Assembly (NCBI GenBank): GCA_014860395.1
Contig: JACZJU010000102.1
Coordinates: 808-64,807, forward strand
DNA length: 64,000 bases
Source of the DNA: Burkholderiales bacterium
GTDB taxonomy: Bacteria > Pseudomonadota > Gammaproteobacteria > Burkholderiales > SG8-39
Direction: 5' to 3'
The notes below the pieces were generated by a model. It was not told the origin of the DNA, searched no databases, and saw only the letters and a list, made by a program, of their open reading frames with translations. The first letter of the stretch is position 1; each line of letters opens with the position of its first letter. A program made the position numbers and the translations under genes. Below are positions 16,854-42,808 of the stretch, one piece after another.

Positions 16854-17651
16854 ATGAAGATCGCTATTGCAGGCAGCTCAGGACGCATGGGCCGCAGCCT
16901 GATCGAGGCAGTGCTGTCGGGCAAGGATCTGAAGCTGTCCGCAGCGTTGGACGTCGTCGGAAGCGCATACCTGGGCAAGGATGCAGGCGAGGCCCTGGGC
17001 AGCGCCTGCGGCGTTGCGGTCAGCGCCGACTATGCCGCCGGCATCGCCGCGTCCGACTGCCTGATCGACTTCACGCGGCCCGAAGGCAGCCTGCTGCATC
17101 TGGACGCCTGCGTGAAGGCGGGCACGAACATGGTGATAGGTACGACCGGCTTCAGCGCCGAGGGCAAGCAGCGCATCGTCGCCGCAGCAAAGCAAATTGC
17201 CATCGTGTTTGCGCCGAATATGGCCATCGGCGTCAATGCCACCTTCAAGTTGGCCGAGGTCGCGGCGAAAATCCTGGGCGACGCCTATGACGTCGAAATC
17301 ATAGAGGCGCATCACCGGCACAAGGTCGATGCGCCATCGGGGACGGCGCTCAAGCTTGGCGAAGTAGTCGCTGCGGCGCTAGGCCGTGACCTGAAAAACT
17401 GTGCCGTGTACGGGCGCGAGGGCGACACCGGCGAGCGCGACGCCAAGAGCATAGGTTTCCACGCGATTCGCGGCGGCGATATCGTCGGTGAGCACACCGT
17501 GATGTTTGCCGGGAGCGGCGAGCGCATCGAAATCACGGTGCGCTCGCAAAGCCGCACGACCTATGCAGCGGGTGCCCTGCGGGCTGCGCGCTTCCTCAAG
17601 GGCAAGGCCTCGGGACTTTACGACATGCAGGACGTGCTCGGTCTGCGCTGA
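16854..17651 (+). CDS. dapB: 4-hydroxy-tetrahydrodipicolinate reductase
   Basis: [14 protein letters not shown] (NAD(P)-binding), [15 protein letters not shown] and [12 protein letters not shown] motifs. 265 aa. Confidence 0.96.
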
Positions 17652-17679
17652 ACGGGCGCAGCCCGGCGTAAAAGCCCAT

Positions 17680-17748
17680 GCTGCGCGATTCCTGGAGGGA
17701 AAGACGTCGGGTCTTTACGGTATGCAGGACGTGCTTGGCCTGAAGTAA
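17680..17748 (+). pseudogene. Degenerate second copy of the last ~22 codons plus stop of dapB
   Basis: 54/69 nt identical (counted by hand) to 17583-17651, offset 97 bp. Encodes AARFLEGKTSGLYGMQDVLGLK* versus the genuine [22 protein letters not shown]. Confidence 0.8.
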
Positions 17749-17798
17749 TCCATCGTCTTTTGCTCGCTCACGCTTTGCGCCACACCGCGCCGGCGTGT

Positions 17799-17880
17799 TT
17801 GGCGCGAAGTAGTGTTCCGAGTTATAATCACCCGGTATGACGGGACGGGACCTGCGTGGTGCCTGTCCCGTTTCTATATA
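17799..17880 (+). promoter_or_regulatory. Putative carAB promoter (TTGGCG-18-TATAAT) and leader hairpin/attenuator
   Basis: TATAAT at 17823-17828. Hairpin ACGGGAC...GTCCCGT (17840-17871) is followed by TTCTATATATAAA. A 19-codon ORF (17837..17896) spans the hairpin and ends 2 nt before the carA GTG. Confidence 0.35.
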
Positions 17881-17898
17881 TAAATCCTGGAGTTAGCC

Positions 17899-19080
17899 GT
17901 GTCCTCGCCGTTTCCGCCCGCCGTTCTTGCGCTCGCCGACGGGACCATATTTTACGGCTCCGGATTCGGCGCAGCGGGCAGTACGGTGGGCGAAGTGGTG
18001 TTCAACACCGCCATGACCGGTTACCAGGAAATCCTCACCGATCCCTCCTATTGCCGTCAGATCGTCACGCTGACCCATCCGCATATAGGCAACACCGGCA
18101 TCAACCGGGAAGACCAGGAATCGGCGCAGGTGCACACGGCCGGCTTGGTGATCCGCGACCTGCCGTTGCGCGTATCGAATTTTCGCAGCGAACAAAGCCT
18201 GTCCGACTATCTCCGGGCCGGCAAGATCGTTGCAATCGCCGGCATCGATACGCGCAAGCTCACGCGCATTCTGCGCACTCATGGCGCGCAGTCAGGATGC
18301 CTGCTCGCCGCAGCGCAAGGCGAGTCGCTGAGCGACGCTGACGTGGCGCGTGCCGTTGCGCTGGCGCGCGAGTTTCCGGGCCTCGCCGGCATGGATCTGG
18401 CGAAAGTGGTGTCGGTAAGCAAAGCCTACGATTGGAGCGATGGTGCATGGGCGCTGGGCGAGGGATATCGAAAAATCGACAGCCATCGTTTCCATGTCGC
18501 CGCCTATGACTACGGCGTGAAGCGCAACATCCTGCGCCTGTTGGCCGAGCGCGGCTGCAAGGTGACGGTGTACCCGGCCGAGACGCCGGCAAAGGCGGTG
18601 CTGGCCGCTAACCCAGACGGCGTCTTCCTTTCCAATGGACCGGGCGATCCGGAACCCTGCACCTACGCCATCGAAGCGATAAGCGAAATCATCGATGCCG
18701 GCATACCCACATTCGGCATCTGCCTCGGCCATCAGTTGCTCGGTCTGGCATCGGGCGCAAAGACCATGAAAATGAAGTTCGGGCACCACGGCGCCAATCA
18801 CCCGGTGAAGGACCTGGACACCGGACAGGTGGCGATCACCAGTCAGAATCACGGCTTTGCCGTCGATGCGGCGACGCTGCCGGCCAACTTGCGGCCGACC
18901 CATGTTTCGCTGTTCGACGGCAGTCTGCAGGGCATGGCGCGTACCGATCGGCCCGCCTTCTGCTTCCAGGGCCATCCCGAGGCGAGCCCCGGCCCGCATG
19001 ACATCGGCTATCTGTTCGATCGCTTTGTGAAACTGATGGACGATGCCAAGGGCGGCAAGCCCGTCGGCGCGAAGAAATAG
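17899..19080 (+). CDS. carA: Carbamoyl-phosphate synthase small (glutaminase) subunit
   Basis: [32 protein letters not shown], and GATase triad region GICLGHQLL ... FQGHPE. GTG start. Confidence 0.96.
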
Positions 19081-19081
19081 C

Positions 19082-22303
<3,222 letters not shown>

Positions 22304-22465
22304 TGGTCTCCAACTAACTCAGAGTTGATAGAATTGGCGAAGAGCGGGACGGGAAAGGGTCCCTCCCGCTTCCTTGGCACCCCCTTTTTCCGTTGGTTAG
22401 GGGTTTTTCCCTGGCCGAAGACAGCTTGTTTGCTTCCGGCTGGCCCGACTTAGGATTGAACGAAC

Positions 22466-22942
22466 ATGAGCAAGACTCCCCTTACGGTCAAGGGCGCGGA
22501 GCTGTTGCGCGCCGAACTGCAGCGTCTGAAGACGATAGACCGGCATAGCGTGATCGCCGCGATCGCCGAGGCGCGCTCGCACGGCGATCTGTCGGAGAAC
22601 GCCGAGTACGACGCGGCCAAGGAGCGGCAGAGCTTTATTGAAGGGCGGATCGCCGAAGTCGAGAGCAAGCTCGCCAATGCGCAGGTGATCGACCCCAAGC
22701 TGCTCGACGCTGACGGGCGCTGCGTGTTTGGCTCGACCGTGGACCTGCAGGAACAGGCAAGCGGTGACAAGGTGACCTACCAGATCGTCGGTGATGACGA
22801 GGCCGACATCAAGCACGGCAAGATTTCCATCGGCTCGCCTATCGCGCGTGCGTTGATCGGCAAATACGCGGGCGACGTGGTAGAGGTACAGGCTCCGGGA
22901 GGCGTACGCGAGTTCGAAATAATCGATGTACGCTACGAATAG
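22466..22942 (+). CDS. greA: Transcription elongation factor GreA
   Basis: [43 protein letters not shown]. 158 aa. Confidence 0.96.
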
Positions 22943-23152
22943 CGGGAGTCGCCCGTGTTCGTAAATTCGGTCGCGGGCGACGTGGTCGAGGTACAGGCTC
23001 CGGGAGGCGTGCGCGAGTTCGAAATAATCGATGTACGCTACGAATAGCGGTAGTCGCCCGTGTTCGTAAAATTGGTCGCGGGCGACGTGGTAGAGGTACA
23101 GGCGCCGGGAGGCGTACGCGAGTTCGAAATTTTCGACGCGCGCTACGAATAG
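22838..23152 (+). repeat. 105-bp tandem repeat x3; unit 1 is the 3' end of greA
   Basis: TAG stops at 22942, 23047 and 23152, exactly 105 bp (35 codons) apart. The last 72 nt of units 1 and 2 differ at 2 positions. Units 2 and 3 are ~90% identical (94/105, counted by hand). Confidence 0.92.
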
Positions 23153-23171
23153 CGCGCAAGATCGGCTCGAC

Positions 23172-23528
23172 CTACTCGCCCTGGTAGCTTTGCTTCGTTC
23201 GGCGCGGCGGCTTGCGCACGGCGCGTTTCTTCGGCGCGGGCGTGGTCGCTGGCGGTTCCAGATGTTCACGGTACACGACCAGTATCTTGCCGATGTGCTG
23301 CACCGGGGAGGCGCCGGTTCGGTTGCAGATTTCGCCGAGCAGTGCCTGGCGCAGGTCGCGGTCGTCGCCTGTGACGCGTATTTTGATCAGCTCGTGCGCC
23401 TTTAGGCTGGTTTCAATTTCCTTGAGCACCGCAGCTGACAGGCGTTCGTTTCCCACCGTGACCACGGGCCTGAGGGCGTGAGCTCGTGCTTTGAGCAGCT
23501 TGCGCTCGGCGGGAGAGAGGGATTTCAT
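23172..23528 (-). CDS. yhbY: Ribosome assembly RNA-binding protein YhbY (CRM domain)
   Basis: MKSLSPAERKLLKARAHALRPVVTVGNERLSAAVLKEIETSLKAHELIKIRV with a basic C-terminal tail. The ATG at 23528 lies inside an over-extended ORF-track entry (23172..23897). Confidence 0.88.
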   Translation of the reverse strand: MKSLSPAERKLLKARAHALRPVVTVGNERLSAAVLKEIETSLKAHELIKIRVTGDDRDLRQALLGEICNRTGASPVQHIGKILVVYREHLEPPATTPAPKKRAVRKPPRRTKQSYQGE

Positions 23529-23573
23529 TTTGAATGCTATCGCAAAGTCTAATTGTAACAGCCTGAGCCGGAA

Positions 23574-24200
23574 ATGAGCCGCAGCAAGACGAGCAAGGCG
23601 TGGATGCGCGAGCACGTCAACGATCCTTATGTGCAAAAGGCCAGGGCCGAGGGCTATCGGTCGCGCGCCGCGTATAAGCTCTTGGAATTGGACCGGAAAG
23701 ACCGGCTGCTCGCGCCCGGGAAGCTGGTGGTCGATCTGGGCGCGGCCCCCGGGGGTTGGTCGCAGGTGGCGGCAGCAAAGCTCGGCGCCAGGGGCCGTTT
23801 GGTTGCGGTGGACATACTGCCGATGGAGCCGTTGCCGGGGGTGCATTTCGTGCAAGGCGATTTTCGCGAACAGGCCGTGCTCGATGCGCTGATCCAAGCC
23901 TTGGGCGGGAGCAAGGCGGACCTTGTAATCTCCGATCTCGCCCCCAATATCTCAGGTATCGGCGTAAGCGACCAGGCGCGAGCCATGTACTTGGCCGAGT
24001 TGGCGCTGGAATTTGCCCGGCAATGCCTGAAACCGGGCGGCTCGTTGGTGGTCAAAGTGTTTCAGGGAGCCGGATTCACGGAATTTTTGACGGCGATGCG
24101 CAAGGCTTTTGCCAAAGTGGGGTCGCGCAAGCCGGAAGCCTCGCGCGGACGTTCGAGCGAGATGTATTTGCTGGGGAAGGGTCTGAAATCAGGCGTATAA
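23574..24200 (+). CDS. rlmE: 23S rRNA (uridine2552-2'-O)-methyltransferase RlmE (FtsJ)
   Basis: [44 protein letters not shown] (SAM motif), [10 protein letters not shown]. Confidence 0.95.
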
Positions 24201-24361
24201 AAGGGGATATGCAAAGGGCGGAACCGTTTCTTCCCGCGCGGCCACTTTTATGGCTATCCGGCGAGAGCCGCAGGGGTATTGCGGCGGCTAGCCCCGCTCC
24301 CCGCTAACCCTGTAAAATGGGCAACGAGCAGCATTAGCAGCAATAGTCGCATAGGAACCCA

Positions 24362-26248
24362 ATGAACAACATGTTTAAGAATCTCGTGATCTGGCTGGTG
24401 ATCGGCATGGTGCTGATGACCGTGTTCAATCAGTTCAACACGCGCCAGACGTCCCAGGCGGCGATGGACTATTCCCAGTTCTACGAGGAAGTCAAAGCCG
24501 GGCATATCGCCGAGGTGGTGATCGAGGGCCGCAACCTCAAAGCGAAGACGACCGACGGCAAGTCCATCACCAGCTACTCCCCCGGCGACATCTGGCTCAT
24601 TTCCGACCTGTTGAAATACGGGGTCAAGGTCAAGGCGAAGCCGGAAGAGGAGCCGTCGCTGCTGATGAACATCTTCGTTTCCTGGTTCCCGATGCTGCTG
24701 CTGATCGGCGTGTGGGTGTTCTTCATGCGCCAGATGCAGGGCGGCGGACGCGGCGGCGCTTTTTCGTTTGGCAAGTCGCGCGCGCGCATGCTCGATGAAT
24801 CCACCAACACCGTCACCTTCGCCGACGTGGCCGGCTGCGAGGAAGCCAAGGACGAGGTGTCCGAGCTGGTCGATTTCCTGCGAGATCCAACCAAGTTTCA
24901 GAAGCTGGGCGGGCGCATCCCCAAGGGCGTGCTGATGGTGGGCAACCCGGGCACGGGCAAGACGCTGCTGGCGCGGGCGATTGCGGGTGAAGCCAAGGTG
25001 CCGTTCTTCTCGATTTCTGGCTCGGATTTCGTCGAGATGTTCGTCGGCGTGGGCGCGGCGCGCGTGCGCGATATGTTCGAACAGGCGAAAAAGCATGCTC
25101 CCTGCATCGTATTCATCGATGAGATCGACGCCGTCGGCCGCCAGCGCGGCGCCGGCCTGGGCGGGGGCAACGACGAGCGCGAACAGACGCTGAACCAGCT
25201 GCTGGTGGAGATGGACGGGTTCGAGGCTACCGCCGGCGTGATTGTCATCGCCGCCACCAACCGCCCCGATGTGCTCGACCCGGCGCTGCTGCGCCCGGGC
25301 CGCTTCGACCGCCAGGTGGTGGTGCCGCTGCCCGACATCCGCGGGCGCGAACAGATCCTGCTGGTGCACATGCGCAAGGTGCCGATGGCGCCCGACGTCA
25401 AGGCCGACATCATCGCGCGCGGCACGCCGGGCATGTCAGGCGCCGATCTGGCCAATCTTGTGAATGAAGCGGCGCTGTTCGCGGCGCGCAAGAGCAAGCG
25501 CCTGGTGGACATGGACGATTTCGAGCGCGCCAAGGACAAGATCATCATGGGCGCGGAACGGCGTTCCATGGTGATGCCCGAGGAGGAGCGCAGGAACACG
25601 GCCTATCACGAGTCCGGCCACGCGGTGGTGGCCAAGCTGGTGCCCAAGTCCGATCCGGTGCACAAGGTCACCATCATCCCGCGCGGGCGCGCGCTGGGCG
25701 TGACCATGCAGTTGCCGGCGGAAGACCGCTACAGCATGGATCGCGTGCGATTGCTGTCCACGATCGCGGTACTGTTCGGCGGGCGCATCGCGGAAGAGAT
25801 ATTCATGCACCAGATGACTACCGGCGCGTCGAACGACTTCGAACGCGCTACCGAGATGGCGCGGCGCATGGTGACGCAATGGGGCATGTCCGATGCTTTG
25901 GGTCCGATGGTCTACGGCGAGAATGAAGGCGAGGTGTTCCTCGGCCGCTCGATCACCACGCACAAGAACGTTTCCGAGGTGACCATGCAGAAGGTCGACC
26001 AGGAAATCCGCCGCATAATCGACGAGCAGTATGCGCTGGCGCGGCGCCTGATCGAGGAGAACCGGGACAAGGTCGAGGCGATGGCCAAGGCCCTGCTCGA
26101 GTGGGAAACCCTGGACTCCGACCAGTTGGACGACATCATGGAAGGCAAGCCGCCGCGCGCGCCGCGGCCGACCCAGTCCAGTACCACGCCGCCGCCGTCA
26201 CCTCCTAAGGACGACGCAGCCGGCGCTGCAGCACCCGCTGCGACTTAA
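24362..26248 (+). CDS. ftsH: ATP-dependent zinc metalloprotease FtsH
   Basis: Walker [12 protein letters not shown], Walker [13 protein letters not shown] region [20 protein letters not shown], and zinc motif HESGHAVV. Confidence 0.97.
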
Positions 26249-26308
26249 ACGGGACAGTCTGGGAACAATCAGAGTGTCTCCGGCAAGGGAAAAGCGCTGA
26301 ATGCACGA

Positions 26309-26334
26309 ACAAGGGGGGGCGCGCCCCCCCTTGT
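26309..26334. terminator. Perfect 26-bp GC palindrome (G7/C7) downstream of ftsH, possible bidirectional hairpin terminator
   Basis: acaagggggggcgcgcccccccttgt is perfectly self-complementary. No U-tract follows it. Confidence 0.4.
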
Positions 26335-26448
26335 CCCCCAGGAGGACTTCCTTCGGGGCGTATATCCCCCCCCCGCGAATAGACGCCGACAAAGGGGCGA
26401 TTATCGCGCCCGCGGTCGACTCCCGGCCGTCGCTGCGTACCCGATCCA

Positions 26449-27276
26449 ATGATCGCCCAGCTTCACTGTGGCCGCTTTCGCTTCGCGCTTGATCGGCCGC
26501 TCATCATGGGCGTGGTCAATATCACGCCCGATTCTTTTTCCGATGGCGGCCGGTTTCTCGATCCCGCCGCCGCCATTGCGCACGCGCACCGACTGATGGA
26601 GGAGGGCGCAGACCTCATTGATCTGGGCGCCGAGTCCAGCCGGCCGGGCGCGGCTGCAGAGGTGAGCGCGGAGGAAGAACTGCGCCGGCTGCTGCCGGTG
26701 CTGCAGGGCTTGCGCGACCTGCCGCTGTCGGTGGATACGGTCAAGCCCGAGGTGATGCGCGTCGCGCTCGCCGAGGGTGCTGCAATGATAAACGATATCA
26801 ATGCATTGCGCGCGCCAAGTGCGCTGGCTGCCTTGGCGGCCAGCGATGCCGCCGTGTGCCTGATGCACATGCAGGGCAGTCCCGGCACCATGCAGCAGGA
26901 TCCGAGCTACGGCGACGTTGTGGCGGAGGTGAAGGCTTTTCTGCTCGAGCGCATCGGGAGCGTAGTCGCGACGGGGATTGCGTTGGAGCGCGTGGTCGTC
27001 GATCCGGGCTTTGGTTTCGGCAAGACCCTTGAGCACAATCTCGAGCTGCTGCGTCACTTTGGCGAGTTCGCCGCGCTCGGCGTGCCGGTCCTGGCCGGTT
27101 GGTCGCGCAAGTCCTCGCTGGGCAAGATCACAGGCAAGCCGGCCGGCGAGCGTCTTGCTGCGAGCATTGCCGCCGCCCTGATTGCAGCGCAAAATGGCGC
27201 TGCGATTTTGCGCGTGCACGACGTCGCGGCAACGCGCGACGCGCTCGCGGTGCTTGCGGCGGTGAAAAATACCTAA
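26449..27276 (+). CDS. folP: Dihydropteroate synthase
   Basis: IMGVVNITPDSFSDGG, GADLIDLGAESSRPGA, ILRVHDV. 275 aa. Confidence 0.95.
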   Translation: MIAQLHCGRFRFALDRPLIMGVVNITPDSFSDGGRFLDPAAAIAHAHRLMEEGADLIDLGAESSRPGAAAEVSAEEELRRLLPVLQGLRDLPLSVDTVKPEVMRVALAEGAAMINDINALRAPSALAALAASDAAVCLMHMQGSPGTMQQDPSYGDVVAEVKAFLLERIGSVVATGIALERVVVDPGFGFGKTLEHNLELLRHFGEFAALGVPVLAGWSRKSSLGKITGKPAGERLAASIAAALIAAQNGAAILRVHDVAATRDALAVLAAVKNT

Positions 27277-27280
27277 AGGC

Positions 27281-27342
27281 CGTTTCGGAATTACCGAAAT
27301 GTCCACCGATGTAGAGGAGTATGAGGGGAGGTATCCTCTCAT
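27281..27342 (-). repeat. REP-like hairpin element, copy D (degenerate, inverted orientation)
   Basis: Hairpin TTTCGG-aatta-CCGAAA, then GTAGAGGAGTATGAGGGGAggtatCCTCTCAT. Same order and similar sequence to copy C (TTTAGGGGAGCACGAGGGG). Confidence 0.45.
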
Positions 27343-28715: not shown

Positions 28716-28767
28716 CTCAACTAGACGGATGTGCAGGTTTTTCCAACGCCTGCGCGCTGCGCGCGCC

Positions 28768-28818
28768 AACCGTGTTCTCTGTATGGATGAATAGCACATC
28801 CATACAGAAAACACGGTT
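28768..28818. repeat. 51-bp palindrome (22-bp stem, one mismatch, 7-nt loop)
   Basis: aaccgtgttctctgtatggatg-aatagca-catccatacagaaaacacggtt. Confidence 0.85.
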
Positions 28819-28859
28819 ATGTGTAAAAGCAACAACGGCTTGGGGTTGATTTGTAACGA

Positions 28860-28910
28860 GATCGCCGATTGCGCGCGAATGTGCTTTTCATTCGCGCGCA
28901 ATCGGCGATC
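28860..28910. repeat. 51-bp perfect palindrome (22-bp stem, 7-nt loop)
   Basis: gatcgccgattgcgcgcgaatg-tgctttt-cattcgcgcgcaatcggcgatc. Confidence 0.85.
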
Positions 28911-28930
28911 CGCGCGGACGGGACGCCGTC

Positions 28931-28994
28931 CGCGCAAGTTGACATACACCGTTTGTATTGCGGTTCGTTTCAGCCAAATCGGCCTGTGATGTAG
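28931..28994 (-). pseudogene. Degenerate copy of the pstB 3' end plus its downstream hairpin region
   Basis: ~70% identical (30/42 over the hairpin part, counted by hand) to 29032-29094 at a 100-101 bp offset. Minus strand reads TAC ATC ACA GGC CGA TTT GGC TGA = YITGRFG*, identical to the PstB C-terminus. Confidence 0.7.
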
Positions 28995-29052
28995 TGCCTC
29001 CGGCCGGGCTTTCAGCCCTTAACTTGCGCTGCGCGCAAGTTAGCCTACGCCG

Positions 29053-29094
29053 TTACATCACTGGTCGTTTCAACCGAAACGACCAGTGATGTAA
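29053..29094 (-). terminator. Perfect 19-bp-stem hairpin made from the last codons of pstB and their inverted copy
   Basis: ttacatcactggtcgtttc-aacc-gaaacgaccagtgatgtaa. The stop codon (29070-29072) sits at the loop. A second hairpin aacttgcgc-t-gcgcgcaagtt lies at 29021-29041. Confidence 0.55.
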
Positions 29095-29876
29095 TCTTCG
29101 GTTTCTTTCTTGGCGGGGTTGATAAAGATCTTGTCGGTAATGTCGAATTCGATCAGCTCGCCCAGGTACATGTAGGCGGTGAAGTCGGACACACGCGCCG
29201 CCTGTTGCATGTTGTGGGTGACGATGGCGATGGTGTAGTCCGCCTTGAGTTCATTCAGCAGTTCCTCGATTTTCGCCGTGGAAATGGGGTCCAGCGCCGA
29301 GGTCGGTTCGTCCAGCAGCAGCACTTCCGGCTTGACCGCGACCGCGCGCGCGATGCACAGGCGCTGCTGCTGCCCGCCTGAAAGGCTGAGTCCGCTTTGA
29401 CGCAGCTTGTCCTTGGTTTCGTCCCATAGCGCCGCCTTGCGCAGCGCCCATTCGACGCGCTCGTCCATCTCCCCGCCGCTGAGCCTCTCGTACAGCTTGA
29501 CGCCGAAAGCGATGTTCTCGTAAATCGACATCGGAAACGGCGTCGGCTTCTGGAATACCATCCCGACCTTGGCGCGCAGCGCGATCACATCCTGGCGCGG
29601 ATCGAGTATGTTGCTGTCATTCAGCATGATCTCGCCGGTGGCGCGGTGCCCAGGATACAGGTCGTACATGCGGTTGAAGATGCGCAGCAGCGTGGATTTG
29701 CCGCAGCCGGAAGGGCCGATGAAGGCGGTAATTCTTCTTTCGGCGATTTCCAGATTGACGTTCGTCAGCGCCTGGTAAGTGCCGTAGTAGAAATTGAGAT
29801 TGCGAGCCCTGATCTTGCTGACAGCAGGCGGCGCCTGGATGCTTGTGTCGTGCGACGTCTGATTGCCGGTGTCCAT
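29070..29876 (-). CDS. pstB: Phosphate ABC transporter ATP-binding protein PstB
   Basis: Walker [10 protein letters not shown], signature [14 protein letters not shown], Walker [12 protein letters not shown], and PstB-typical C-terminus [10 protein letters not shown]. Confidence 0.97.
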
Positions 29877-31807: not shown

Positions 31808-32857
31808 CTACCAGATCGGCTTGCCGCTCGAGTCCTTGAGCTTCTCCTTCCACTCGGCGTGAATCAGCGCTACGACCTCGTCAGGCATGGGGACGTAATT
31901 CAGTTCCAATGCCAGCTTGTCGCCGTTCTTGTAGGCCCAGTCGAAGAACTTGAGCACTTCCTTGGCAGTGGCGGCATTGGCCTGGGTCTTGTGCATCAGA
32001 ATGAACGTGGCGCCGGTGATGGGCCAGCTGTCCTTGCCGGGTTCGTTGGTGAGGATTTCGTAGAATCCGGGCGCGTTCTTCCAGTCGGCGCCCGCGGCCG
32101 CGGCCTGGAAGGTTTTGTCCTCAGGGGCGACGAACTGGCCATCCCGGTTCTGCAGCAGGGTGTATGCCATCTTGTTCTGCTTGGCATAAGCGTATTCGAC
32201 ATAGCCGATCGCCCCCTTGATGCGCTGCACGAACGAGGCTACGCCTTCATTGCCTTTGCCGCCTGCGCCGGTGGGGGCGGGCCAGGCGACCGATTTGTCA
32301 TTGCCTACCTTGTCTTTCCACTCCTGGCTGACCTTGGACAGGTAGTTGGTGAAGATGAAGGTGGTGCCCGAGCCGTCAGAACGGTTCACCACAGTGATCG
32401 CAGCATCCGGCAGCTTCATGCCCTTGTTGAGCTCGGCAATCGCCGGGTCGTTCCATTTCTTGATCTTGCCCAGATAGATGTCGGCCAGGGTTGTGCCGGA
32501 GAGTTTCATTTCGCCGGGCTTGACCCCTTCGATATTGACCACCGGCACCACGCCGCCCATTACCGTGGGGAATTGCACCAGGCCGTCCTTCTCCAGTTCC
32601 TCAGCTTTTAGCGGTGCGTCGGAAGCGCCGAAATCGACGGTCTTGGCCTTGATCTGCTTGATGCCGCCGCCCGAGCCGATCGACTGGTAGTTCATGCTGG
32701 TACCGGTCTTGGCCTTGTAGGCCTCGGCCCATTTGGCGTAGGCGGGGTAGGGGAAGGTGGCGCCGGCGCCGGTGATATTTGCGGCCGTCGCGGTCGTTGC
32801 GGCGCAGATTCCCAGCGCCAGCAGCGCCGGAGTGAACATACGATGAGCCAGTTTCAT
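31808..32857 (-). CDS. pstS: Phosphate ABC transporter substrate-binding protein PstS
   Basis: Signal peptide, then [26 protein letters not shown] and RSDGSGTTF motifs. Confidence 0.96.
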
Positions 32858-32991
32858 GTGGAAGTCTCCAGTAAGAGTTTTACGTTGCTACCCTGGTCGC
32901 GGGTACCAAGCGGCGATGTTATGGCCGCTTTGTTACACGAATATTACGCGTTCAAATTCGAGCGCCGGAGCGCCGCTCATGGATCGCAGCC

Positions 32992-34110
32992 TCAAGCTGC
33001 CAAAGCGTGAAGTGGGTCGTGGAAGGGGTAATTCAGGGCTGCGGCGACCTCAGCGCAGGTCACTTTGCCGCGGCAGACGTTGAGCCCCGCGCGCAGGTGC
33101 GGGTGGTCCTGCAGCGCCCGCCGGTAGCCTTGATCGGCAAGCAGGAGCACATAGGGGAGGGTGGCGTTGTTGAGGGCAAAGGTCGAAGTTCGCGGGACGC
33201 CGCCCGGCATGTTGGCGACGCAATAGTGGACGACGTGGCCGACGACATAGGTCGGTTCGGCATGGGTGGTCGGATGCGAGGTCTCGAAGCAGCCGCCCTG
33301 ATCTATGGCCACGTCCACCACCACCGCACCGGCCTTCATCGCGCCCACCATCTGTTGCGACACCAGCTTCGGCGCCGCGGCACCGGGGATCAGCACACCG
33401 CCGATCACCAAGTCGGCCGACAGCACATGGCGCTCGATGTTGTCGCGGCTGGAGAACACCGTGATCGGGCGCGCGCCGAGAAGGCGCTCGATGCGCCGCA
33501 GCGCGTCGATGTTGCGGTCCAGCACCACGACTTGGGCGCCACTGCCCACTGCAGCCTGAGCGGCGTTCGAACCGACCACGCCGGCGCCGAGAATGACGAT
33601 CTTCGCCGGGGGCACGCCGGCCACTCCGCCGAGCAAGATGCCCATCCCTCCTTGGGGCTTTTCCAGATTGTGCGCGCCCGCCTGCACCGACATGCGCCCG
33701 GCGACTTCGGACATGGGGGCGAGCAGAGGCAGGCCGCCGTCGGGCGCGGTGACGGTCTCGTACGCGATGCAGATCCCACCGCTTTCCACCAGTTCAGCGG
33801 TCTGTTCTGGATCGGGCGCCAGATGCAGATAGGTGAAAAGGATCTGGCCCGGCCGCAGGCGCCTGCGCTCTTCCGGCTGCGGCTCTTTTACCTTGACGAT
33901 CATTTCCGCGCGCGCGAAGACTTCTTCGGCGCTGCTGACGATGTCCGCGCCAGCCGCCTGGTAGACGCTGTCGGCGGTGTTGATACCGGCCCCGGCATCG
34001 TGCTCGACGACAATCTGATGGCCATGGGCGCAGAGCTCGCGCACGCTTGCGGGCGTGAGGCCGACGCGATATTCCTGGCTTTTGACTTCCCTCGGCACGC
34101 CAATTAGCAT
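32992..34110 (-). CDS. ald: Alanine dehydrogenase
   Basis: [23 protein letters not shown]-binding [13 protein letters not shown], and HYCVANMPG. 372 aa. Confidence 0.95.
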
Positions 34111-34632
34111 CGCTTGCTCCTGATCGCGGATTCCGACGGCGTTGCGCTGCGGTATGCCCGCGCGCCAGACCTGCCCCTACGCAACGGCTGGACTCGATGC
34201 AAGACGCATTTTGCGACGGACGCCGTTGTTCAGGGGATTTTCAATATACCCCAGATCGCTGCGCCTTTGAATTGCGCTGCTGCCGTCATGGTCGCGTGCG
34301 GCATCGCTTGCCCTCATGAAATGGACGGCAATTGCAGCGTTGTTCCGGCGGCTTGAGAAGGCGCCGGGTGCTACTGTGGGCGCATGACGTCGTGCTGGTG
34401 CGCATTGGTAGCCACCGCCGCTGAGGGCGGCCCAGCGTCCGATCGGCTCCACCGGGGTCAAGATTGCGTGGCGGCTGCCGATAATGATCAGAAGAGTAAA
34501 AGTATGTCCGCTGCCGCCCCGCGCGGCAGCGGACCGGGAAAACACGCCTATGGCTGGCATCGCTAGCTTTTCACCCCCCGTCTCGCCTGCCCGCTTTTGG
34601 CAGCGTGGATCGCGCGTGCCCGGGAGGCACTG

Positions 34633-37446
34633 ATGCGGCTCGTGCGGCGCATGCGCGAATATTTCGCGCAATCATTCCGGCGCAAACTGACGCTCGCAAT
34701 GGCGCTCATGGCATTGTCGGCATCTGCGCTTACGCTTGCCGTCTCGCTCTGGGGTTTCGGTTTCGAGGCCGGGCTCGGGCGTGAGCACCCGAGTGCGGGT
34801 CGCAATGCCGCCGCCATGGGAGCATTCGCGACATTTGCACTGGCATTCGCGCTGCTCGTGTCCGCGCGTCTGGCGCGAGCGCTCGCGGCGCCGCTCCTCA
34901 CCATCGCAAACGCCGTGCACGCCGTGGCTGCGAACGGGGACTACAGCGATCGCGTGCCGGTGAGCGGTTCCGACGAGATTGGCCAGGTGGGCGGGGGAAT
35001 CAACCGCCTGCTCGATCAGATGCAGGCACGCGACCGCGAACTTGCGCGCGGCAGCGCGCGCTTGGGCCTTGCACTGGAGGCTTCACAACTATCGCTGTGG
35101 GACTGGGATATAAGCGGTGGCTGGGTCTCGCTTTCGGAGCGCTGGTCCGAGAGCCGCGGCGGACCCGCGCAATCGACACGCATCACGTTTGCGGAGTTCG
35201 TGTCACTGGTGCATCCCGATGACCTGCCGCAATTGCGCGAGCAGCTGCACAGCGTGTTGAAGGGCCGGACTGCCCACTACCAGGCCGAGCACCGCGTACG
35301 CGGCGTGGCGGGCGAAGAATGGATCTGTGTGCAGACCCGCGGCCACGTCTATGAGCGCGATGCGGCGGGCCGGGCGCTGCGCATGACGGGCATCAATGCG
35401 GATGTCACCGATCAGCGCCGGCGTGAAGCGGAACTCATGCAGGCCAAACTTATGGCCGAGTCCGCAAGCCGGGCGAAATCGCAGTTTCTCGCGAACATGA
35501 GCCATGAAATCCGCACACCGATGAACGGGGTGCTCGGCATGACCGAGCTATTGTTGCAGACAGAACTGTCCGAGCGCCAGCGGCGGCTCGCACAAACCGT
35601 GTGCCAATCCGGCGCGGCGCTGCTCACTGTCATCAACGACATTCTCGATTTTTCCAAGATCGAGGCCGGCAAGCTCGAAATCGACCGCATCCCGTTTGAC
35701 CTGCAGCGCGTGGTCGAGGACGCGCTGGATCTGCTTGCGGAACCGGCGATCGCCAAGCGCCTGGAACTGGTCAGCGACCTGGAACCGGGGCTGCCCTGCT
35801 GGTTGCGCGGCGATCCCGGCAGGCTGAGGCAGGTGCTGAGCAATCTGCTGAGCAACGCGGTCAAGTTCACCGACGGGGGCGAAATAGTGTTGAGGATCGC
35901 TGCGGCGAGCAGCAGCGAGCGCGAGGCGGTGCTACGATTCGAGGTGAAGGACACCGGGATCGGCATCGAACATGGCCAGCGGAAAGGCGTCTTCCAGGCA
36001 TTCCGGCAGGGCGATGCCAGCACCACCCGGCGCTACGGCGGCACAGGTCTGGGCCTCGCAATCTGCAGGCAACTGGTCGAGCTGATGGGAGGGGAAATCG
36101 GCGTGCAGAGCAGGCTGGGGCAGGGTTCGACGTTTTGGTTCGTCCTGCCTTTCGAGCGCGTTGCCGAAAGCGCGGCCGAGGTGCAGCCACCGTGGAGTCG
36201 TCTGCGCGGGTTGCATGTGCTGGTCGTCGATGACAACGCCACCAATCGGGATATCCTGTGCGAGCAAATGAGCGCGGAAGGGATCTGCGCCGACAGTGCG
36301 CCGAGCGGGGCGCAAGCGCTGGCGATGCTGCAGTCGATGGCGATGCGTGATCCGTACCGCATTGCGGTGCTCGACATGCATATGCCGCAAATGGACGGGT
36401 TGGAACTTGCGCGCCGCATACGCGAGGATGCTGCGCTCGCGCGCACCGAATTGCTGATGCTGAGCTCGGTCGGGCAAGACATACGCGCGGCCACGTTGCG
36501 CAAACTGGGAATTCGGCGCTGGCTTGCCAAGCCGGTGCGCCAGAAAGAACTGCTGGCCTCGCTCGATGCATTGCTCGATAGCGGGAACGGATTTGCGGTT
36601 GCGCAGGACGCGACGTCGCAGCCGCGTTCTATACTGCACGAGGCGTGCATCCTTCTGGTCGAGGACAACGAGGTAAACCAGATAGTGGGCAAGGAGATGC
36701 TGGAGGTCCTGGGCTACCGCTGCGAGGTCGCGCCGCACGGGCGCGCCGCAATCGAGGCGCTGCGCGCAGGGCGCTATGCGCTGGTGCTGATGGACTGCCA
36801 GATGCCGGAGATGGACGGCTTCAGCGCCACGCGCGCGATTCGCGATCTGGAGGCTCGCGGCGAGTGCTTCGCGACCGGCGAGGGCCGGCTGCCCATCGTC
36901 GCGCTCACGGCGCATGCCATGGTTGGCGACAGGGAGAGGTGCATCGAAGCGGGAATGGACGGCTACATCATCAAGCCCTTCGCTCAGACAGAACTCAGTC
37001 TCGAGATTCAGCGGCATCTGGCGGTTGGCAGGTCACCAGCCGACGGCGCCGCGGGAGCAGGCGTGGCGTCGCCGGCCGAATCCGGCGAAACCCTGGACGA
37101 GAGCGCCCTGGACGCGCTGCGTGCCTTGGACAAAGACGGCAGCCGCGGCGTGGTCCGACGCGTGTTCGACATTTATCTCAAAAACGCGCCGGTGCTGATC
37201 GCGGAAATGCAGGCGGGTGCGACGAAGAACGACCTGGATCGCATGAGTCGCGCCGCGCACTCGCTCAAGTCGAGCAGCCGCAGCGTAGGTGCGGTGAATC
37301 TGGCCGATATTTGCCGCAAGCTGGAGCGCTCGGCCAACGAGGGCCGCGTCGCCGATGCCGCAAGCCTTGTCGCTGCGGCGGTGAGCGCACACGCCGACGC
37401 GTCAAGGCTGGTGCGGGAGCAACTGGAGGACGCGGGGTCAGTATGA
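34633..37446 (+). CDS. Hybrid sensor histidine kinase (2 TM-HAMP-PAS-HisKA-HATPase-REC-REC-HPt)
   Basis: GGGAGG before the ATG at 34633. H-box [20 protein letters not shown] boxes LLSNAVKFT and [18 protein letters not shown]. Two receiver domains ([23 protein letters not shown]). HPt motif [13 protein letters not shown]. Confidence 0.92.
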
Positions 37447-39611
37447 ACGACACGCGCGAGAACCTGCCGTTGGTATTGATCGTCGATGACGACGAGGCGG
37501 CGCGCTTGCTGATCGAAATATCGCTTACCGACGAAGGATTGCAGGTTCAGCAGGCCGCGGATGCGGAAGAGGCGCTGGCCGCATTCGCGGCGCACCGGCC
37601 CGATATCGTGCTGCTCGATGTGAACATGCCGGGCATGGACGGATATGAGTGCTGCCGCGAGTTGCGCCGCCGTCCCGGCGGCGCGGACCTGCCGGTCTTG
37701 ATGCTCACCGGCCACGAAGATCTGCAGTCCATCCAGAGAGCCTACGAGGCCGGGGCGACCGACTTTCTGAGCAAATCCAACAACTGGGGACTGCTCGCGC
37801 ATCGCGTGCGCTACATGCTGCGCGCCAGCCGCGCGTTTGTGAATCTGACACAAAGCCGCCAGCGGCTCGCCTCCGCACAGCGCATTGCGCGCATGGGAAA
37901 CTGGGAGTGGCGTACGGACGAGGGGCGCTTCGCAGTTTCAGACGAGACGCTCGATGTGCTTCATCTGCGCGGCGCGGGCCTGGACGGGACCGGCGAGAGC
38001 GCCATCCGGCTCGTGCATCCGGAAGACCGCGCGCAGGTGATTGACGCCGTGCGGCAGGCCGTCGCCTCGGGTGAGCCTCTGTGCACCGACTTTCGCATCG
38101 TACCGCCCGATGCGGCCGTGCGCTGGCTCCAGCTTCAGGCCGAGATGGTGCGCGACAGCGGCGATGGCGAGGTGGGCATGGCGGGTACGGTGCAGGACGT
38201 CACCGAGCGCTATCTCGCCCAGGATCGGATCCGCTATCTCGCTTACTACGACAGCCTGACCAAGCTTCCCAACCGCACCTTGTTTTGCGAGCAGCTCGGG
38301 CGCGCGGTCCTGCGCGCGCCGCGCTCGAGCGGCAGGCTTGCGGTCATGTTCCTGGACCTGGACAACTTCAAACGCGTCAACGACACCCTTGGCCATTCGG
38401 TCGGCGACCAGATACTCGCCTCGGTGGCAGAGCGGATAAAGAGTTGCCTGCGCCAGGGCGACACCACCGGTCGCAACTACGAGGAACAGTTCGTCGATGT
38501 CGACAACCAGGCCAGGCTGGTCGGTCGGCATGGCGGGGACGAATTCACCCTGTTCCTCGCCGATCTGAAACAAGACAGCGACGCGGCCCTGATCGCGCGG
38601 CGCCTGCTCGCCTCGCTGGCGCAACCGTTCGTGGTCGGCGCGCAGGAAATCGTCGCCAGCGCCAGCATCGGCATTGCCATGTGCCCGGATGACGGCGGCG
38701 ACGTCGAGACACTGCTGCGCCACGCCGATGCGGCGATGTTTCACGCAAAAGAGCATGGCCGCAACAACTACCAGTACTACAGCCATTCCATCGGAGCCGC
38801 GGCATTCCAGAAACTGGCGCTCGAATCGAGTCTGCGCAAAGCGCTCGAACGCGAGGAGTTCGTTCTGTACTACCAGCCGATCATAAGAATCGCGGACGCC
38901 AGCATCGTCGGTGCCGAGGCGCTGCTGCGCTGGCGCCACCCGGATCGCGGCATCGTCCCGCCGAGCGAATTCATCCCGCTCGCAGAGGAGACCGGGCTGA
39001 TCGTTCCGCTGAGCGAGTGGGTGCTGCGCGAGGCCTGCCGGCAGGCGCGCGCCTGGCAACTCGCCGGTCTTGATCCGGTGCACGTCGCGGTGAACATTTC
39101 CGCCGCCTACCTGCAGCGCGCGAACCTCGCGCACGCGGTTGCAAGCGCTCTCGAGGACGCCGGCCTGGACCCGCATTGTCTGGGCCTGGAACTGACCGAA
39201 AGCGTATTTGCGCGCGACCTGGAGGCGACGCTGACCCTGTTCATGGGATTGCGTGACTTGGGAGTCGCACTGGCGATCGATGATTTCGGCACCGGCTACT
39301 CGTCTCTGAGCTACCTGCGCCGCTTTCCGTTGAATGCGCTCAAGATCGACCGCTCCTTCGTGCACGACCTGCCGCACGACGAGGACGCAGTAGCGCTCGC
39401 CACGGCGATCATCGCCATGGGTCGCAGTCTTAAGCTTGAACTGATCGCTGAGGGAGTGGAAACGCCGCTGCAACTGGAGTTCCTGCGCGCTCAGGGCTGC
39501 GAGCGCTTCCAGGGCTATCTTTTCAGCCCGGCGGTGCCGCCGCAGGAGTTCGCCGCGCTGATGGCCGGCGGCGCCGATCATGGGCGCTTGCTGTGCCGCG
39601 CAGGCTTGTAA
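37443..39611 (+). CDS. Response regulator with PAS, GGDEF and EAL domains (c-di-GMP turnover)
   Basis: The start ATG overlaps the kinase stop (ATGA). [14 protein letters not shown]...[12 protein letters not shown]; GGDEF motif [11 protein letters not shown]; EAL motif GAEALLRW plus [10 protein letters not shown] and KIDRSFV. The ORF-track entry 36645..39611 is over-extended upstream. Confidence 0.93.
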
Positions 39612-39798
39612 GCTCACCTAGCAGAAGTAGTTTAGTCGCAGGCTCTGAGGCGGGCGAGCGCCGCCTGGCGGCGCGCTATTGAACGAGCGCGGCGCGAGGC
39701 GCAAAATGCCCCTTGGGCGTAGCGGCACTGCGGCAATACCGATCACGCATTGGCCGCTGCAACCGAACGACAGTGCGGGTTAGCCACGGAGCGATTCT

Positions 39799-40032
39799 AT
39801 GACTACGGACGAAAACAGGACGAAGGTGACCATTCTGACCGGGACCTACCGCGTCAAGGGCTATATCGAGCTCTTGCCCGGCGCCCGGGTGACGGACTAC
39901 CTAGTGGAATCGAAGGACTTTATCGCGGTCACGGATGCCGAGGTCTGGGAACTGGGCAATCGTCACGTTCTTAACGCTCCGTTCATCAATGTGAGCCTCG
40001 AACACATCCAGATTGTCACGCCAGGAGATTGA
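39799..40032 (+). CDS. Hypothetical small protein (77 aa)
   Basis: ACGGAG lies before the ATG and codon bias looks good. No family recognised by eye. Confidence 0.5.
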   Translation: MTTDENRTKVTILTGTYRVKGYIELLPGARVTDYLVESKDFIAVTDAEVWELGNRHVLNAPFINVSLEHIQIVTPGD

Positions 40033-40267
40033 CGCCGGAGCATCCAATTCGCCGCCGCAATATGAGTTTTGCGGCAGTCCGAGCAGGGGAGCAGGAGGGG
40101 ATGCGCTGCCCTTCATTTCGAATCAGACTCTTAGCCTCGCGCCGCGTTTGAAATCGGACCGCTGGCCGCGGCGCCAGAGGCGGCATTTGATTGACCGGCT
40201 TTGTCTAAACGCTGTAAAATCCGACGGTTCTGACGCCTAACGGCGGCTTTTCCTAGGAATCAAGGCA

Positions 40268-41026
40268 ATGCGCAGCCGGCTGGTCGCGGGTAATTGGAAA
40301 ATGAACGGCAGCCTGGCTGCCAATCGGCGCTTGCTCGACGCCCTGAAGGCTGGCTTGCAGGCGAGTGCCGGGGTGCAGCATACGGTATGCGTGCCTTACC
40401 CGTATCTGGCCCAGGTTGAAGCAGCTCTGGCCGGCACGTCCATCGCCTGGGGGGCGCAAAATCTGAGCGAACATGCTCAGGGCGCGTACACCGGCGAAGT
40501 GTCGGGCGCGATGCTGCGCGACTTCGGTTGCCGCCATGTGCTTGTCGGCCATTCCGAGCGGCGAGCGCTGTATGGCGAGAGCGACAAGCAGGTAGCGGCC
40601 AAGTTTCAGGCGGCGCAGGGGGCGGGATTGATTCCGATCCTGTGTGTGGGCGAAACCCTGCAGGAGCGTGAGAGTGCAGTGACCGAAATCGTGGTCGGGC
40701 GCCAGCTCGCAGCCGTGCTCGATTCGAGTGGCGTTGGCACGCTGGTGAACGCAGTAATCGCCTACGAACCGGTGTGGGCCATCGGTACCGGCAGGACCGC
40801 GACGCCGCAGCAGGCGCAAGCGGTGCACGCGTTCATACGCGGGGTCGTCGGCAGGCAGGATGCCAAGCTCGCCGCGGGTTTGACCATTGTATATGGCGGC
40901 AGCGTCAAGGCAGCCAATGCGAAAGAACTGTTTTCCATGCCCGATATAGATGGCGGGCTCATCGGCGGTGCCGCGCTGGTGGCGGAGGAATTCATTGCGA
41001 TTAGCGCTGCGGCGGGCGGGGCATAA
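40268..41026 (+). CDS. tpiA: Triosephosphate isomerase
   Basis: [36 protein letters not shown]. Confidence 0.97.
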
Positions 41027-41128
41027 ACGGCGTGGGGCAGGGGGTGCGGCCCGGCGAATCGGCGCATCATCGATTGTACAGAGTTTTTATCGTCCGTCAT
41101 GCGGCGGGTGAGTCATAGCGAGTGAGGA

Positions 41129-41515
41129 ATGGACATCTGGTTGACAGTGATTTTGACGATGCACGTTTTGGTGGCGCTGGCGATTATCTTTCTGGTGCTG
41201 CTTCAGCACGGCAAGGGCGCGGACATGGGGGCAGCTTTCGGCGGCGGTTCTTCGGGCAGCCTGTTCGGCGCCACCGGTTCGGCGAATTTTCTTTCCCGCA
41301 CCACGGCAGCCCTGGCGGCGGTATTTTTCCTCACCAGCCTCGGCCTGGCCTACGTGGCGACGCACAAGCCCAAGACAGGGGGCAGCGTGATGCAGGGCGT
41401 GACCGCGCCGCCTGCACCTGCGGTCACGCCCTTGGAAGACGTGCCCAAACCGGCCGATGCGCCCAAACCGGCAAGCGCGCCGTCGGGGTCCAAGGCGAAC
41501 GACATACCTAAGTAA
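41129..41515 (+). CDS. secG: Preprotein translocase subunit SecG
   Basis: LVLLQHGKGADMGAAFGGGSSGSLFGATGSANFLSRTT is the SecG signature. Ala/Pro-rich tail. Confidence 0.93.
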   Translation: MDIWLTVILTMHVLVALAIIFLVLLQHGKGADMGAAFGGGSSGSLFGATGSANFLSRTTAALAAVFFLTSLGLAYVATHKPKTGGSVMQGVTAPPAPAVTPLEDVPKPADAPKPASAPSGSKANDIPK

Positions 41516-41603
41516 AGACTGGTGGCTGGAGGCCGGAAACCAGGAGCCCCAAGGACATGGCGGTTCATCTAGTTTCTGGACACCAGTCTCTAGTTGCTAG
41601 ACT

Positions 41604-41688
41604 GCCGACGTGGTGAAATTGGTAGACACGCTATCTTGAGGGGGTAGTGGCGAAAGCTGTGCGAGTTCGAGTCTCGCCGTCGGCACCA
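41604..41688 (+). tRNA. tRNA-Leu (anticodon GAG), CCA-encoded
   Basis: Acceptor GCCGACG/CGTCGGC, anticodon stem CTATC/GGTAG with loop TTGAGGG, long variable arm, T-arm GAGTTCGAGTCTC, and 3' ACCA. secG-tRNA-Leu(GAG) synteny matches secG-leuU. Confidence 0.92.
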
Positions 41689-41906
41689 ATGATTTTTGGA
41701 TTGATGAACTTGGAGCGAGGGCCTTGCGGAATTTTGGGGTCTGCGACTTGTCGAATGAAAAGTGAATGAAGGCCAAACAAAAAGAGCGCGTTTGATCTAT
41801 GTCAACTCCGCGACGCGCTCATTGGTAGACCATGTCGCCTGCCTGTATGATTGAAAAAATAACCTACATCAATACTTTGATCATCGACTCCAGAAACTGA
41901 CGCTCC

Positions 41907-42263
41907 GTGCTCGAAAATTACTTTCCTGTTCTGATGTTCATTTTCATCGGCCTTGCCGTCGGCATCGGGCCGATCGTCACCGGCGCGATACTCGGACCGC
42001 ACCGTCCAGACAGCGAAAAGCTTTCCCCCTACGAGTGCGGCTTCGAGGCTTTCGAAGACGCGCGCATGAAGTTCGACGTGCGCTATTACCTGGTCGCGAT
42101 TCTGTTCATCCTGTTCGATCTAGAGATCGCGTTCCTGTTTCCCTGGGCGATCGTGCTCAATGAAATCGGTCTGTTCGGTTTCGTTTCCATGATGATTTTC
42201 CTCGGTATTCTGGTGGTTGGCTTCATCTACGAGTGGATGAAAGGAGCACTGGAATGGGAATAG
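41907..42263 (+). CDS. nuoA: NADH-quinone oxidoreductase subunit A
   Basis: 118 aa, 3 [37 protein letters not shown] start. Confidence 0.93.
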
Positions 42264-42730
42264 AAGGGATACTGCAGGAAGGCTTTGTCACCACCACGGC
42301 GGACAAGCTGATCAACTGGACCCGCACCGGGTCAATGTGGCCGATGACCTTCGGCCTGGCTTGCTGCGCGATCGAAATGATGCACTCCGGCGCTGCGCGC
42401 TACGACCTCGATCGCTTCGGCATCGTGTTCCGTCCCAGCCCGCGCCAGGCGGACGTGATGATCGTCGCCGGCACCCTGTGCAACAAGATGGCGCCGGCGC
42501 TGCGCAAGGTCTACGATCAGATGGCCGAGCCGCGCTGGGTAATTTCCATGGGCTCCTGCGCCAACGGCGGCGGCTACTATCACTATTCCTATTCGGTGGT
42601 ACGCGGCTGCGACCGCATTGTGCCGGTCGACATCTACGTGCCAGGCTGTCCGCCCACGGCCGAGGCTTTGCTCTACGGCATCATTCAGCTGCAAAACAAG
42701 ATTAAACGCACAAATACTATCGCTCGCTAA
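42254..42730 (+). CDS. nuoB: NADH-quinone oxidoreductase subunit B
   Basis: AAGGAG before the ATG at 42254. [20 protein letters not shown] and PGCPP (N2 cluster ligands). Confidence 0.96.
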
Positions 42731-42808
42731 TGCTCGCTCAGACAATCGCTCGCTAACGCTCGCTCAGACTATCGCTCGCCAACACCCACTCAGATGATCG
42801 CCCGCTAA
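42719..42808 (+). repeat. 26-bp tandem repeat x3.5 filling the nuoB-nuoC spacer; unit 1 contains the nuoB stop
   Basis: atcgctcgctaatgctcgctcagaca / atcgctcgctaacgctcgctcagact / atcgctcgccaacacccactcagatg / atcgcccgctaa, followed directly by the nuoC ATG at 42809. Confidence 0.9.

Follow-up and report, generated by a model that had tools for sequence, protein, structure and literature searches.

Tandem copies of gene 3' ends behind four housekeeping genes of an uncultured betaproteobacterium, probably shaped by duplication and by recombination between strains

The DNA considered here is a stretch of 64,000 nt (62% G+C), hereafter the window, from contig JACZJU010000102.1 of the metagenome-assembled genome of an uncultured soil or groundwater betaproteobacterium. 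Its genes include conserved core genes, which lie in the order ppk/ppx/phoU, dapB-carA-carB-greA, yhbY-ftsJ-ftsH-folP-glmM, the pstSCAB operon, tpiA-secG, and nuoA-N. Four of them, dapB, greA, pstB, and nuoB, are each followed by direct repeats of their own last codons, stop codon included (Table 1). A preliminary description, made from the letters of the window, had pointed to these four repeats, and all of them are indeed present. Its counts of extra copies also hold for dapB (one), greA (two), and pstB (one), while at nuoB we counted three extra units rather than the 2.5 that it gave; its remark that the copies decay with distance from the gene is right for greA and roughly right for nuoB. 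The exact DapB, PstB, and NuoB proteins of the window are recorded in NCBI as MBE0620457.1, MBE0620466.1, and MBE0620477.1.

Repeats were detected with Tandem Repeats Finder (TRF) and a repeat finder, and every gene end was scored by Smith–Waterman alignment against its own 400-nt downstream region. The relatives used for comparison are around 50 metagenome contigs, gathered via GreA homologues, the exact NuoB protein, and a conserved motif of the carA leader; they total some 0.45–0.5 Mb of clade sequence, largely from the same genomic regions as the window. An outgroup control consisted of 80 loci from Beta- and Gammaproteobacteria, found by a CarB-based contig scan, with an identity of at most 83% among the matches listed. 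All the compared sequences (denoted by L and a number) are short-read metagenome assemblies.

Table 1. Positions in the window of the four genes, the copies of their ends, and the features that border them.
Feature	Position	Strand	Remarks
dapB coding sequence	16854–17651	+	Functional gene stop TGA at 17649–17651; 4-hydroxy-tetrahydrodipicolinate reductase (MBE0620457.1)
dapB end copy 1 (expressed)	17583–17651	+	22 terminal codons and TGA
dapB spacer X, 28 nt	17652–17679	+	Homologous to dapB-array spacers in L097, L108, L127, and L128
dapB end copy 2 (silent)	17680–17748	+	Reads AARFLEGKTSGLYGMQDVLGLK, stop TAA; +1 frame relative to dapB
greA coding sequence	22466–22942	+	GreA homologues 96% identical, with Pfam GreA_GreB domains
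greA unit 1, 105 nt	22867–22971	+	25 terminal codons and TAG (76 nt), then 29-nt spacer
greA unit 2 (silent)	22972–23076	+	Coding part 97% identical to unit 1; 2/2 coding differences synonymous
greA copy 3 (silent, spacerless, coding part alone)	23077–23152	+	76-nt coding part 92% identical to copy 1
yhbY-like gene (CRS1_YhbY)	23172–23540	−	Convergent, borders the greA array; from the list of open reading frames and a domain match
Palindromic element	28745–28935		Three long near-perfect hairpins between glmM and the pstB array; no Rfam match
pstB copy 2 (silent)	28929–28993	−	24-nt coding match (28970–28993) and ~40 nt of partly conserved spacer
pstB unit 1	28994–29093	−	7 terminal codons and TGA (29070–29093), then 76-nt spacer (28994–29069)
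pstB coding sequence	29070–29876	−	Exact protein MBE0620466.1, PstB
nuoB coding sequence	42254–42730	+	Start MGIEGIL; identical protein in at least 22 other contigs
nuoB array	42705–42808	+	Terminal 26 nt (42705–42730) and extra units 42731–42756, 42757–42782, 42783–42808
nuoC	42809–43414	+	ATG directly adjoins the last nuoB unit (TAA)

The two dapB ends lie at an offset of 97 nt, and are 83% identical over an ungapped core (17583–17645 and 17680–17742) and 78% identical over all 69 nt. The silent copy terminates in GLK-TAA, as do many single-copy alleles, and it resembles the functional alleles of other genomes (82.6%) more than the expressed copy beside it (78.3%), the difference being slight. 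In the relatives, where the dapB orthologue of L081 matches Pfam DapB_N and DapB_C, a single dapB end is found in 35 genomes, two ends in L108 and L128, and three in L127, the unit being 97 nt; the contig of L097 stops inside its array, with two copies visible. The third copy in L127 has the same translation as the first despite the change of an arginine codon from CGC to AGG. The five genomes with an array have homologous 28-nt spacers, so the array arose once, and it has since been retained patchily. Segment by segment, the array region of the window is merely 80–90% identical to all the relatives, which is too low to show a recombination breakpoint.

At greA, for which TRF reports 105 nt × 2.7, the third copy occupies the native position of the gene end, with the yhbY-like gene, which is convergent, reaching its own stop around 20 nt away. 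This copy and its flank align collinearly with L083, L101, and L115, all of them single-copy, and the greA spacer is similar to the native 3' flank of the single-copy L097 and L115. The greA end is single in 13 genomes, double in L081/L082, L096, and L125, and triple in the window. In L096, copy 2 and 90 nt of its flank align end to end with the single-copy L094, L103, and L114, and the six differences of this copy from copy 1 are all silent (6/6).

Two further observations concern these loci. The last 10–11 nt of the spacers at dapB (17669–17679) and greA (22962–22971 and 23067–23076) start with TAAA(A); such stretches are absent from the native flanks of single-copy relatives, and they look like junction fillers. 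As regards the annotation, the exact GreA protein of the window has no record in the protein collection, unlike DapB, PstB, and NuoB of the same contig, and the deposited annotation may have called greA differently, possibly owing to the repeats. P0001, a JGI contig of 1005 nt, encodes a GreA homologue 96% identical to that of the window; for want of a stop codon its frame continues downstream, and the annotation gives it 265 residues.

The pstB copies are offset by 100–101 nt and differ at five coding positions, all of them synonymous (5/5). Unit 1 has an exceptional fold (z=-8.5) of three hairpins, in the first of which pairing between the terminal codons and the spacer puts the stop codon at the loop. 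The register of this hairpin is kept in the relatives, in which 80% of cells are paired as against ~33% with the partners slid; its covariation reaches no significance with six sequences. The number of pstB ends ranges from one to three (in units of ~100 nt), with two in the window and three in L081/L082, while in L086 the stops of pstB and glmM overlap, and L089 and L115 have the stop-spanning hairpin alone. In the window, copy 2 runs on into a flank like that of L093, and unit 1 matches the units of L081. The three-hairpin palindrome on the glmM side of this array is also found at the glmM/pstB locus of L093 (1274–1446) and between greA and yhbY in L085 (~812–982, opposite orientation), L094, L096, L103, and L114. 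It looks like a dispersed or mobile non-coding element with a preference for convergent gene ends.

The nuoB array (TRF, 26 nt × 3.5) is the most compact of the four: judged by eye, its unit is the terminal 26 nt of the gene and nothing else. Each unit ends in ATCGC(T/C)CGC and a stop codon, with CAA replacing the stop in the third copy. Across the 11 contigs compared with an identical NuoB, extra units between nuoB and nuoC number zero in L085, L088, and L093, one in L084 and L087, two in L086 and L090, and three in L089, L091/L092, and the window. With zero units, the nuoB stop adjoins the nuoC start (TAAATG), and this is the ancestral state. The preceding junction varies too. A palindromic element of 110–114 nt with the terminus GGAGGCGGCG(A/G)C-ATG is inserted, singly or as a tandem pair, precisely at start codons, namely at nuoA/nuoB in L084, L086–L090, and L093, and upstream of dapB in L111 (4097–4307). 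With it come a ribosome-binding site and an ATG, as well as a duplicate of the ATGGGA in which nuoA and nuoB formerly overlapped. The window lacks this element, and its nuoA and nuoB overlap (42254–42263).

That these repeats exceed what chance would give, as the preliminary description had supposed, is borne out by several measures. The Smith–Waterman scores of the gene end against its downstream region are 35.5 for dapB and 71 for greA, compared with a null of 9.3 +/- 2.4 (99th percentile, 13.8). The short matches at pstB and nuoB have chance probabilities of ~1e-5 and ~3e-4 per gene, and the relatives corroborate both. Gene ends with arrays amount to 4/53 in the window and 3/1043 in the 80 outgroup loci (Fisher p=1.5e-4), and two of the three outgroup positives (L015 carA and L051) look genuine. 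The comparison of relatives that had been proposed as a check reveals variation by whole units at all four loci. No duplicates of 5' ends comparable to the 3' arrays were found among the genes of the window, and no further gene with a gene-end array was found in ~0.45 Mb of related contigs, themselves largely from the same regions. The arrays seem to be a few old, hot loci and not the product of a high current rate of duplication.

What, then, are the silent copies? Within L108, L125, and L081, the copies are 99–100% identical to one another, and the expressed copies of these genomes are 78–93% identical to those of other array-bearing genomes. This combination of identity within genomes and divergence between them points to homogenisation or rapid turnover. 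The last copy in L125, L081, L108, and L097 is again trailed by spacer sequence, which is what a plain tandem duplication of a gene end with its flank predicts. When the dapB, greA, and pstB spacers were compared by BLAST with the ~0.5 Mb of clade sequence, they matched their cognate loci only. As templated copies of nearby sequence, the spacers give a strong inverted match at pstB, corresponding to the hairpin, a marginal one at dapB (P=0.03), and none at greA. In folding, the pstB unit 1 stands alone: shuffled sequences fold as well as the greA and dapB units do, and the nuoB array is unusually unstructured (z=+3.2).

The differences between the copies are more telling. When expressed ends are set against the copies downstream of them (13 comparisons), 49 differences are synonymous and 21 are non-synonymous, which gives a ratio of non-synonymous to synonymous divergence (pN/pS) of 0.14, near the 0.10 obtained for functional ends between genomes. 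Neutral change would be expected to make 60–64% of the differences non-synonymous, whereas 30% are so (P=3e-7 or lower). This suggests that the silent copies diverge like alleles and not like decaying junk. Moreover, since the distal copy of mixed arrays and its flank are collinear with single-copy haplotypes, this copy looks like the former functional gene end of the recipient, upstream of which the proximal units look to have been added or imported.

We consider it probable that the four are locus-specific arrays resembling variable-number tandem repeats (VNTRs), which arose by a tandem duplication spanning the stop codon, then changed by unequal recombination, and were then exchanged between diverged strains. 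The initial event, whether illegitimate recombination or slippage, would have duplicated 26–105 nt comprising the terminal codons, the stop, and a short native 3' flank (none at nuoB). Whole units have subsequently been gained and lost via unequal recombination or slippage, with the copies at times homogenised, as the comparison of genomes shows. In homologous recombination between strains, the repeated gene end may have served as the right-hand crossover site, so that an imported allele, with its unit or units, came to precede the former gene end of the recipient, and this end would be kept as the distal silent copy. This last step has the support of the data in part, and it would explain both the mainly synonymous differences of the silent copies and the fall of identity with distance. 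The arrays would be tolerated because the first copy, stop codon included, leaves the gene complete, and the account requires neither a dedicated enzyme nor a mobile element. Of the four origins put forward in the preliminary description, slippage or unequal crossover is the best supported, given the exact unit-step variation and the arrays with identical copies, and patchy replacement by diverged alleles is supported as a second layer, on the basis of the pN/pS value and of the collinearity of distal copies and flanks with single-copy haplotypes.

Several observations sit uneasily with this account. The originating duplication is inferred, and candidate microhomologies offer weak evidence of it, an example being CGCGGGCG, which occurs at either end of the L081 greA unit; the account also does not explain the junction fillers at dapB and greA. 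Copy 2 of L096 and copy 3 of L127 have no closer match in any sampled genome than copy 1 of their own array, which leaves the donor alleles unplaced. The arrays persist across a pS of ~0.5, which is surprising for unselected direct repeats of ~100 nt. As the data are short-read metagenome assemblies, strain switching inside an array could inflate the allelic signature. Finally, there is the bias towards 3' ends. In simulations of random duplication in which gene-sparing events were kept, ~28% of the survivors of ~100 nt and 13% of those of 26 nt were confined to 3' ends, and the finding of 4/4 arrays at 3' ends has a probability of ~0.003–0.013 under this scheme. Survivorship alone was, on that figure, rejected as an insufficient cause of the bias. 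The excess at 3' ends is probably due to insertions being better tolerated there than in promoters or 5' ends, and stop-proximal hairpins possibly stimulate duplication at these ends.

One simple alternative is that the copies are junk which has drifted since one slippage per lineage, without contributions from other alleles and without selection. The head-to-tail architecture and the change of copy number by unit steps would be expected on this basis, as would damaging changes in the silent copies, of which there are several: Asp to Gly at a conserved DapB residue, the loss of the stop in the third nuoB unit, and two replacements in greA copy 3 (Ile to Phe, Val to Ala). However, 70% of the differences within arrays are synonymous, compared with an expected 36–40%, distal copies lie in flanks of a different haplotype (greA of the window and of L096, and pstB of the window), and some genomes have identical copies in spite of the old shared origin; we regard neutral drift as unlikely. 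Another possibility is that selection keeps the arrays for a function. They might be stacked terminators, hairpins that stabilise the mRNA, spacers that separate abutting or convergent genes, or a reserve of gene ends which frequent gene conversion with the expressed end keeps intact. The fold of pstB unit 1 and its conserved register speak for this, as do the persistence of the arrays across deep divergence, their homogenisation, and the coding character that the silent copies retain; ancestrally, too, nuoB and nuoC, and pstB and glmM, abut or overlap, and the greA and yhbY stops are ~24 nt apart. Against it, a single copy suffices in most relatives (35/39 at dapB and 13/18 at greA), no copy number is preferred, the other three loci lack such folds, and the pstB covariation is non-significant. 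A selected structure in the 3' untranslated region (UTR), one of the origins originally put forward, is plausible for pstB alone, and selection as an explanation of the arrays in general is improbable. A related and unlikely idea is that the silent copies are maintained, either directly as 3'-UTR or spacer modules or indirectly, with conversion and unequal crossover with the expressed end so frequent that selection acts against damaging mutations in them. If so, they would form a housekeeping-gene counterpart of silent-cassette systems, and the replacement of alleles could be read from them where conserved genes meet hypervariable intergenic DNA.

The remaining origin put forward at the outset was that the arrays are scars of mobile or integrative elements which targeted gene 3' ends, carried a replacement end, and have since lost their body. 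In L093, a multi-hairpin element of ~265 nt does separate the pstB end from a remnant of the same 24 nt adjoining glmM, this element is found at two loci in the clade, and the 110–114-nt element at start codons carries its own ribosome-binding site and ATG. Yet in a scan of open reading frames and lists of Pfam domains, the window and the annotated syntenic relatives showed housekeeping genes only, with no gene for an integrase, a transposase, or a reverse transcriptase. The spacers, of 11–76 nt, are specific to their locus and partly native flank, the duplicated lengths vary from 15 to 76 nt, and the arrays, some with three or four copies and none with more than four, change by unit steps; we abandon this origin as very improbable. 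An assembly artefact, in which the assembler collapsed or expanded repeats or joined strain variants in tandem, comes to mind with a metagenome-assembled contig in which the coding parts of greA units 1 and 2 share 97% identity, and the exact number of these near-identical units, which are hard to assemble, is less certain from short reads. It is nevertheless extremely improbable as the source of the arrays. L081 and L082, from different samples, have the same arrays, and the three extra nuoB units are shared by L089, L091/L092, and the window; the recurrence of the same junctions in independent assemblies from different samples and projects makes an artefact very unlikely. Most copies are diverged enough to be assembled unambiguously, and the junctions between a spacer and the next copy are conserved between genomes.

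The window and its relatives contain several other repeats and features. Upstream of carA (~17840–17898), a hairpin and then TATATAAATCCTGGAGTTAGCC just before the start are exactly conserved in 39 metagenome contigs, and are probably a regulatory leader of the pyrimidine genes; outside these elements, the dapB-carA spacer is hypervariable. In contrast to the array units of 26, 97, and 100–101 nt, whose lengths are not multiples of three, the tandem repeats within secG are in frame, with an 18-nt unit × 2.4 in the window (41439–41481) and a 51-nt duplication in L086 (8887–8993), and intragenic duplications appear from these sequences to survive here only when the reading frame is kept. In L125, an array of four 27-nt units, 96% identical, is purely intergenic (10310–10419), so that some arrays in this clade are built without gene ends. 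Short sequences that resemble repetitive extragenic palindromes (REPs), at 14593–14627, 26332–26363, 27277–27329, and 60596–60621 of the window, recur in an insertion downstream of dapB in L081/L082, which suggests that the clade has small intergenic repeats belonging to one dispersed family. An Rfam scan of the whole window returned only a tRNA gene (RF00005, 50 bits), which lies between secG and nuoA (41604–41685).

If arrays of this type prove to be genome-wide, they would mean that essential genes can carry long-lived and strain-variable arrays of their own 3' ends. If the retained old ends do mark where recombination between diverged strains stops, next to hypervariable intergenic DNA, they would provide a signature for mapping allele replacement in uncultured bacteria. 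In practice, the arrays can mislead gene callers and metagenome assemblers, and they are natural copy-number markers for the typing of strains. They also raise the question of why unselected direct repeats of ~100 nt last so long.

Literature searches for an earlier description of arrays of gene 3' ends found nothing specific, and comparison must be made with systems that share some of their features. In the variable-repeat/template-repeat (VR/TR) pairs of diversity-generating retroelements, as here, the 3'-terminal part of a coding sequence recurs not far downstream. This candidate was rejected: there is no reverse transcriptase, and the mismatch bases in the downstream copy are spread over A (8), G (8), T (6), and C (6); furthermore, the targets here are conserved enzymes and not variable ligand-binding proteins. 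The integration of e14 and phage 21 into icd of E. coli leaves a duplicated gene 3' end, the element carrying a replacement end. The likeness lies in a diverged direct copy of the 3' end downstream of an intact gene, and in both cases the differences are mostly silent because both versions served as functional ends. The arrays differ in having no element or integrase between the copies, spacers of only 11–76 nt, and unit-step variation. An integration scar with exactly two copies is refuted by the three greA and four nuoB copies in the window, the three dapB copies in L127, and the three pstB copies in L081. In the gene-conversion systems based on silent cassettes (pilE/pilS, vlsE, and msp2), nearby, promoterless, partial copies of an expressed gene exchange sequence with it. 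The silent gene ends also retain their coding character (pN/pS of 0.14), and, as the copies are identical within some genomes, they may exchange sequence with the expressed end. In contrast to those systems, the arrays belong to housekeeping genes, their copies are near-synonymous, in tandem, and inclusive of the stop, and they generate no protein diversity, which limits the resemblance to function, greA copy 2 of L096 being, like dapB copy 3 of L127, identical in translation to copy 1.

The MIRU-VNTR loci of mycobacteria are similar in having head-to-tail units of tens of nucleotides at gene junctions which vary by unit steps between close relatives (PMC12548453). MIRU units abut or overlap neighbouring stop and start codons, and at nuoB the array likewise spans the distance from the end of the gene to the nuoC ATG, whereas dapB, greA, and pstB have no co-directional abutting gene. 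MIRUs are, however, one dispersed and apparently mobile family, while the arrays described here are self-derived, with spacers confined to their locus in the ~0.5 Mb searched. The insertion of MIRUs at start codons, coupled to a short open reading frame, has been described (PMC12548453), and the 110–114-nt element at the nuoB and dapB start codons of relatives is the truer analogue. The closest kind is thus the VNTR, or minisatellite, in general: the units lie head to tail and vary in whole numbers, from zero to three extra at nuoB and from one to three at greA, dapB, and pstB. What sets these arrays apart is that each is built from the terminal codons of its own gene and that the divergence of its silent copies resembles that of alleles. 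The arrays of gene 3' ends are real, they are concentrated here to a statistically unusual degree, and ordinary processes of duplication and recombination account for them.

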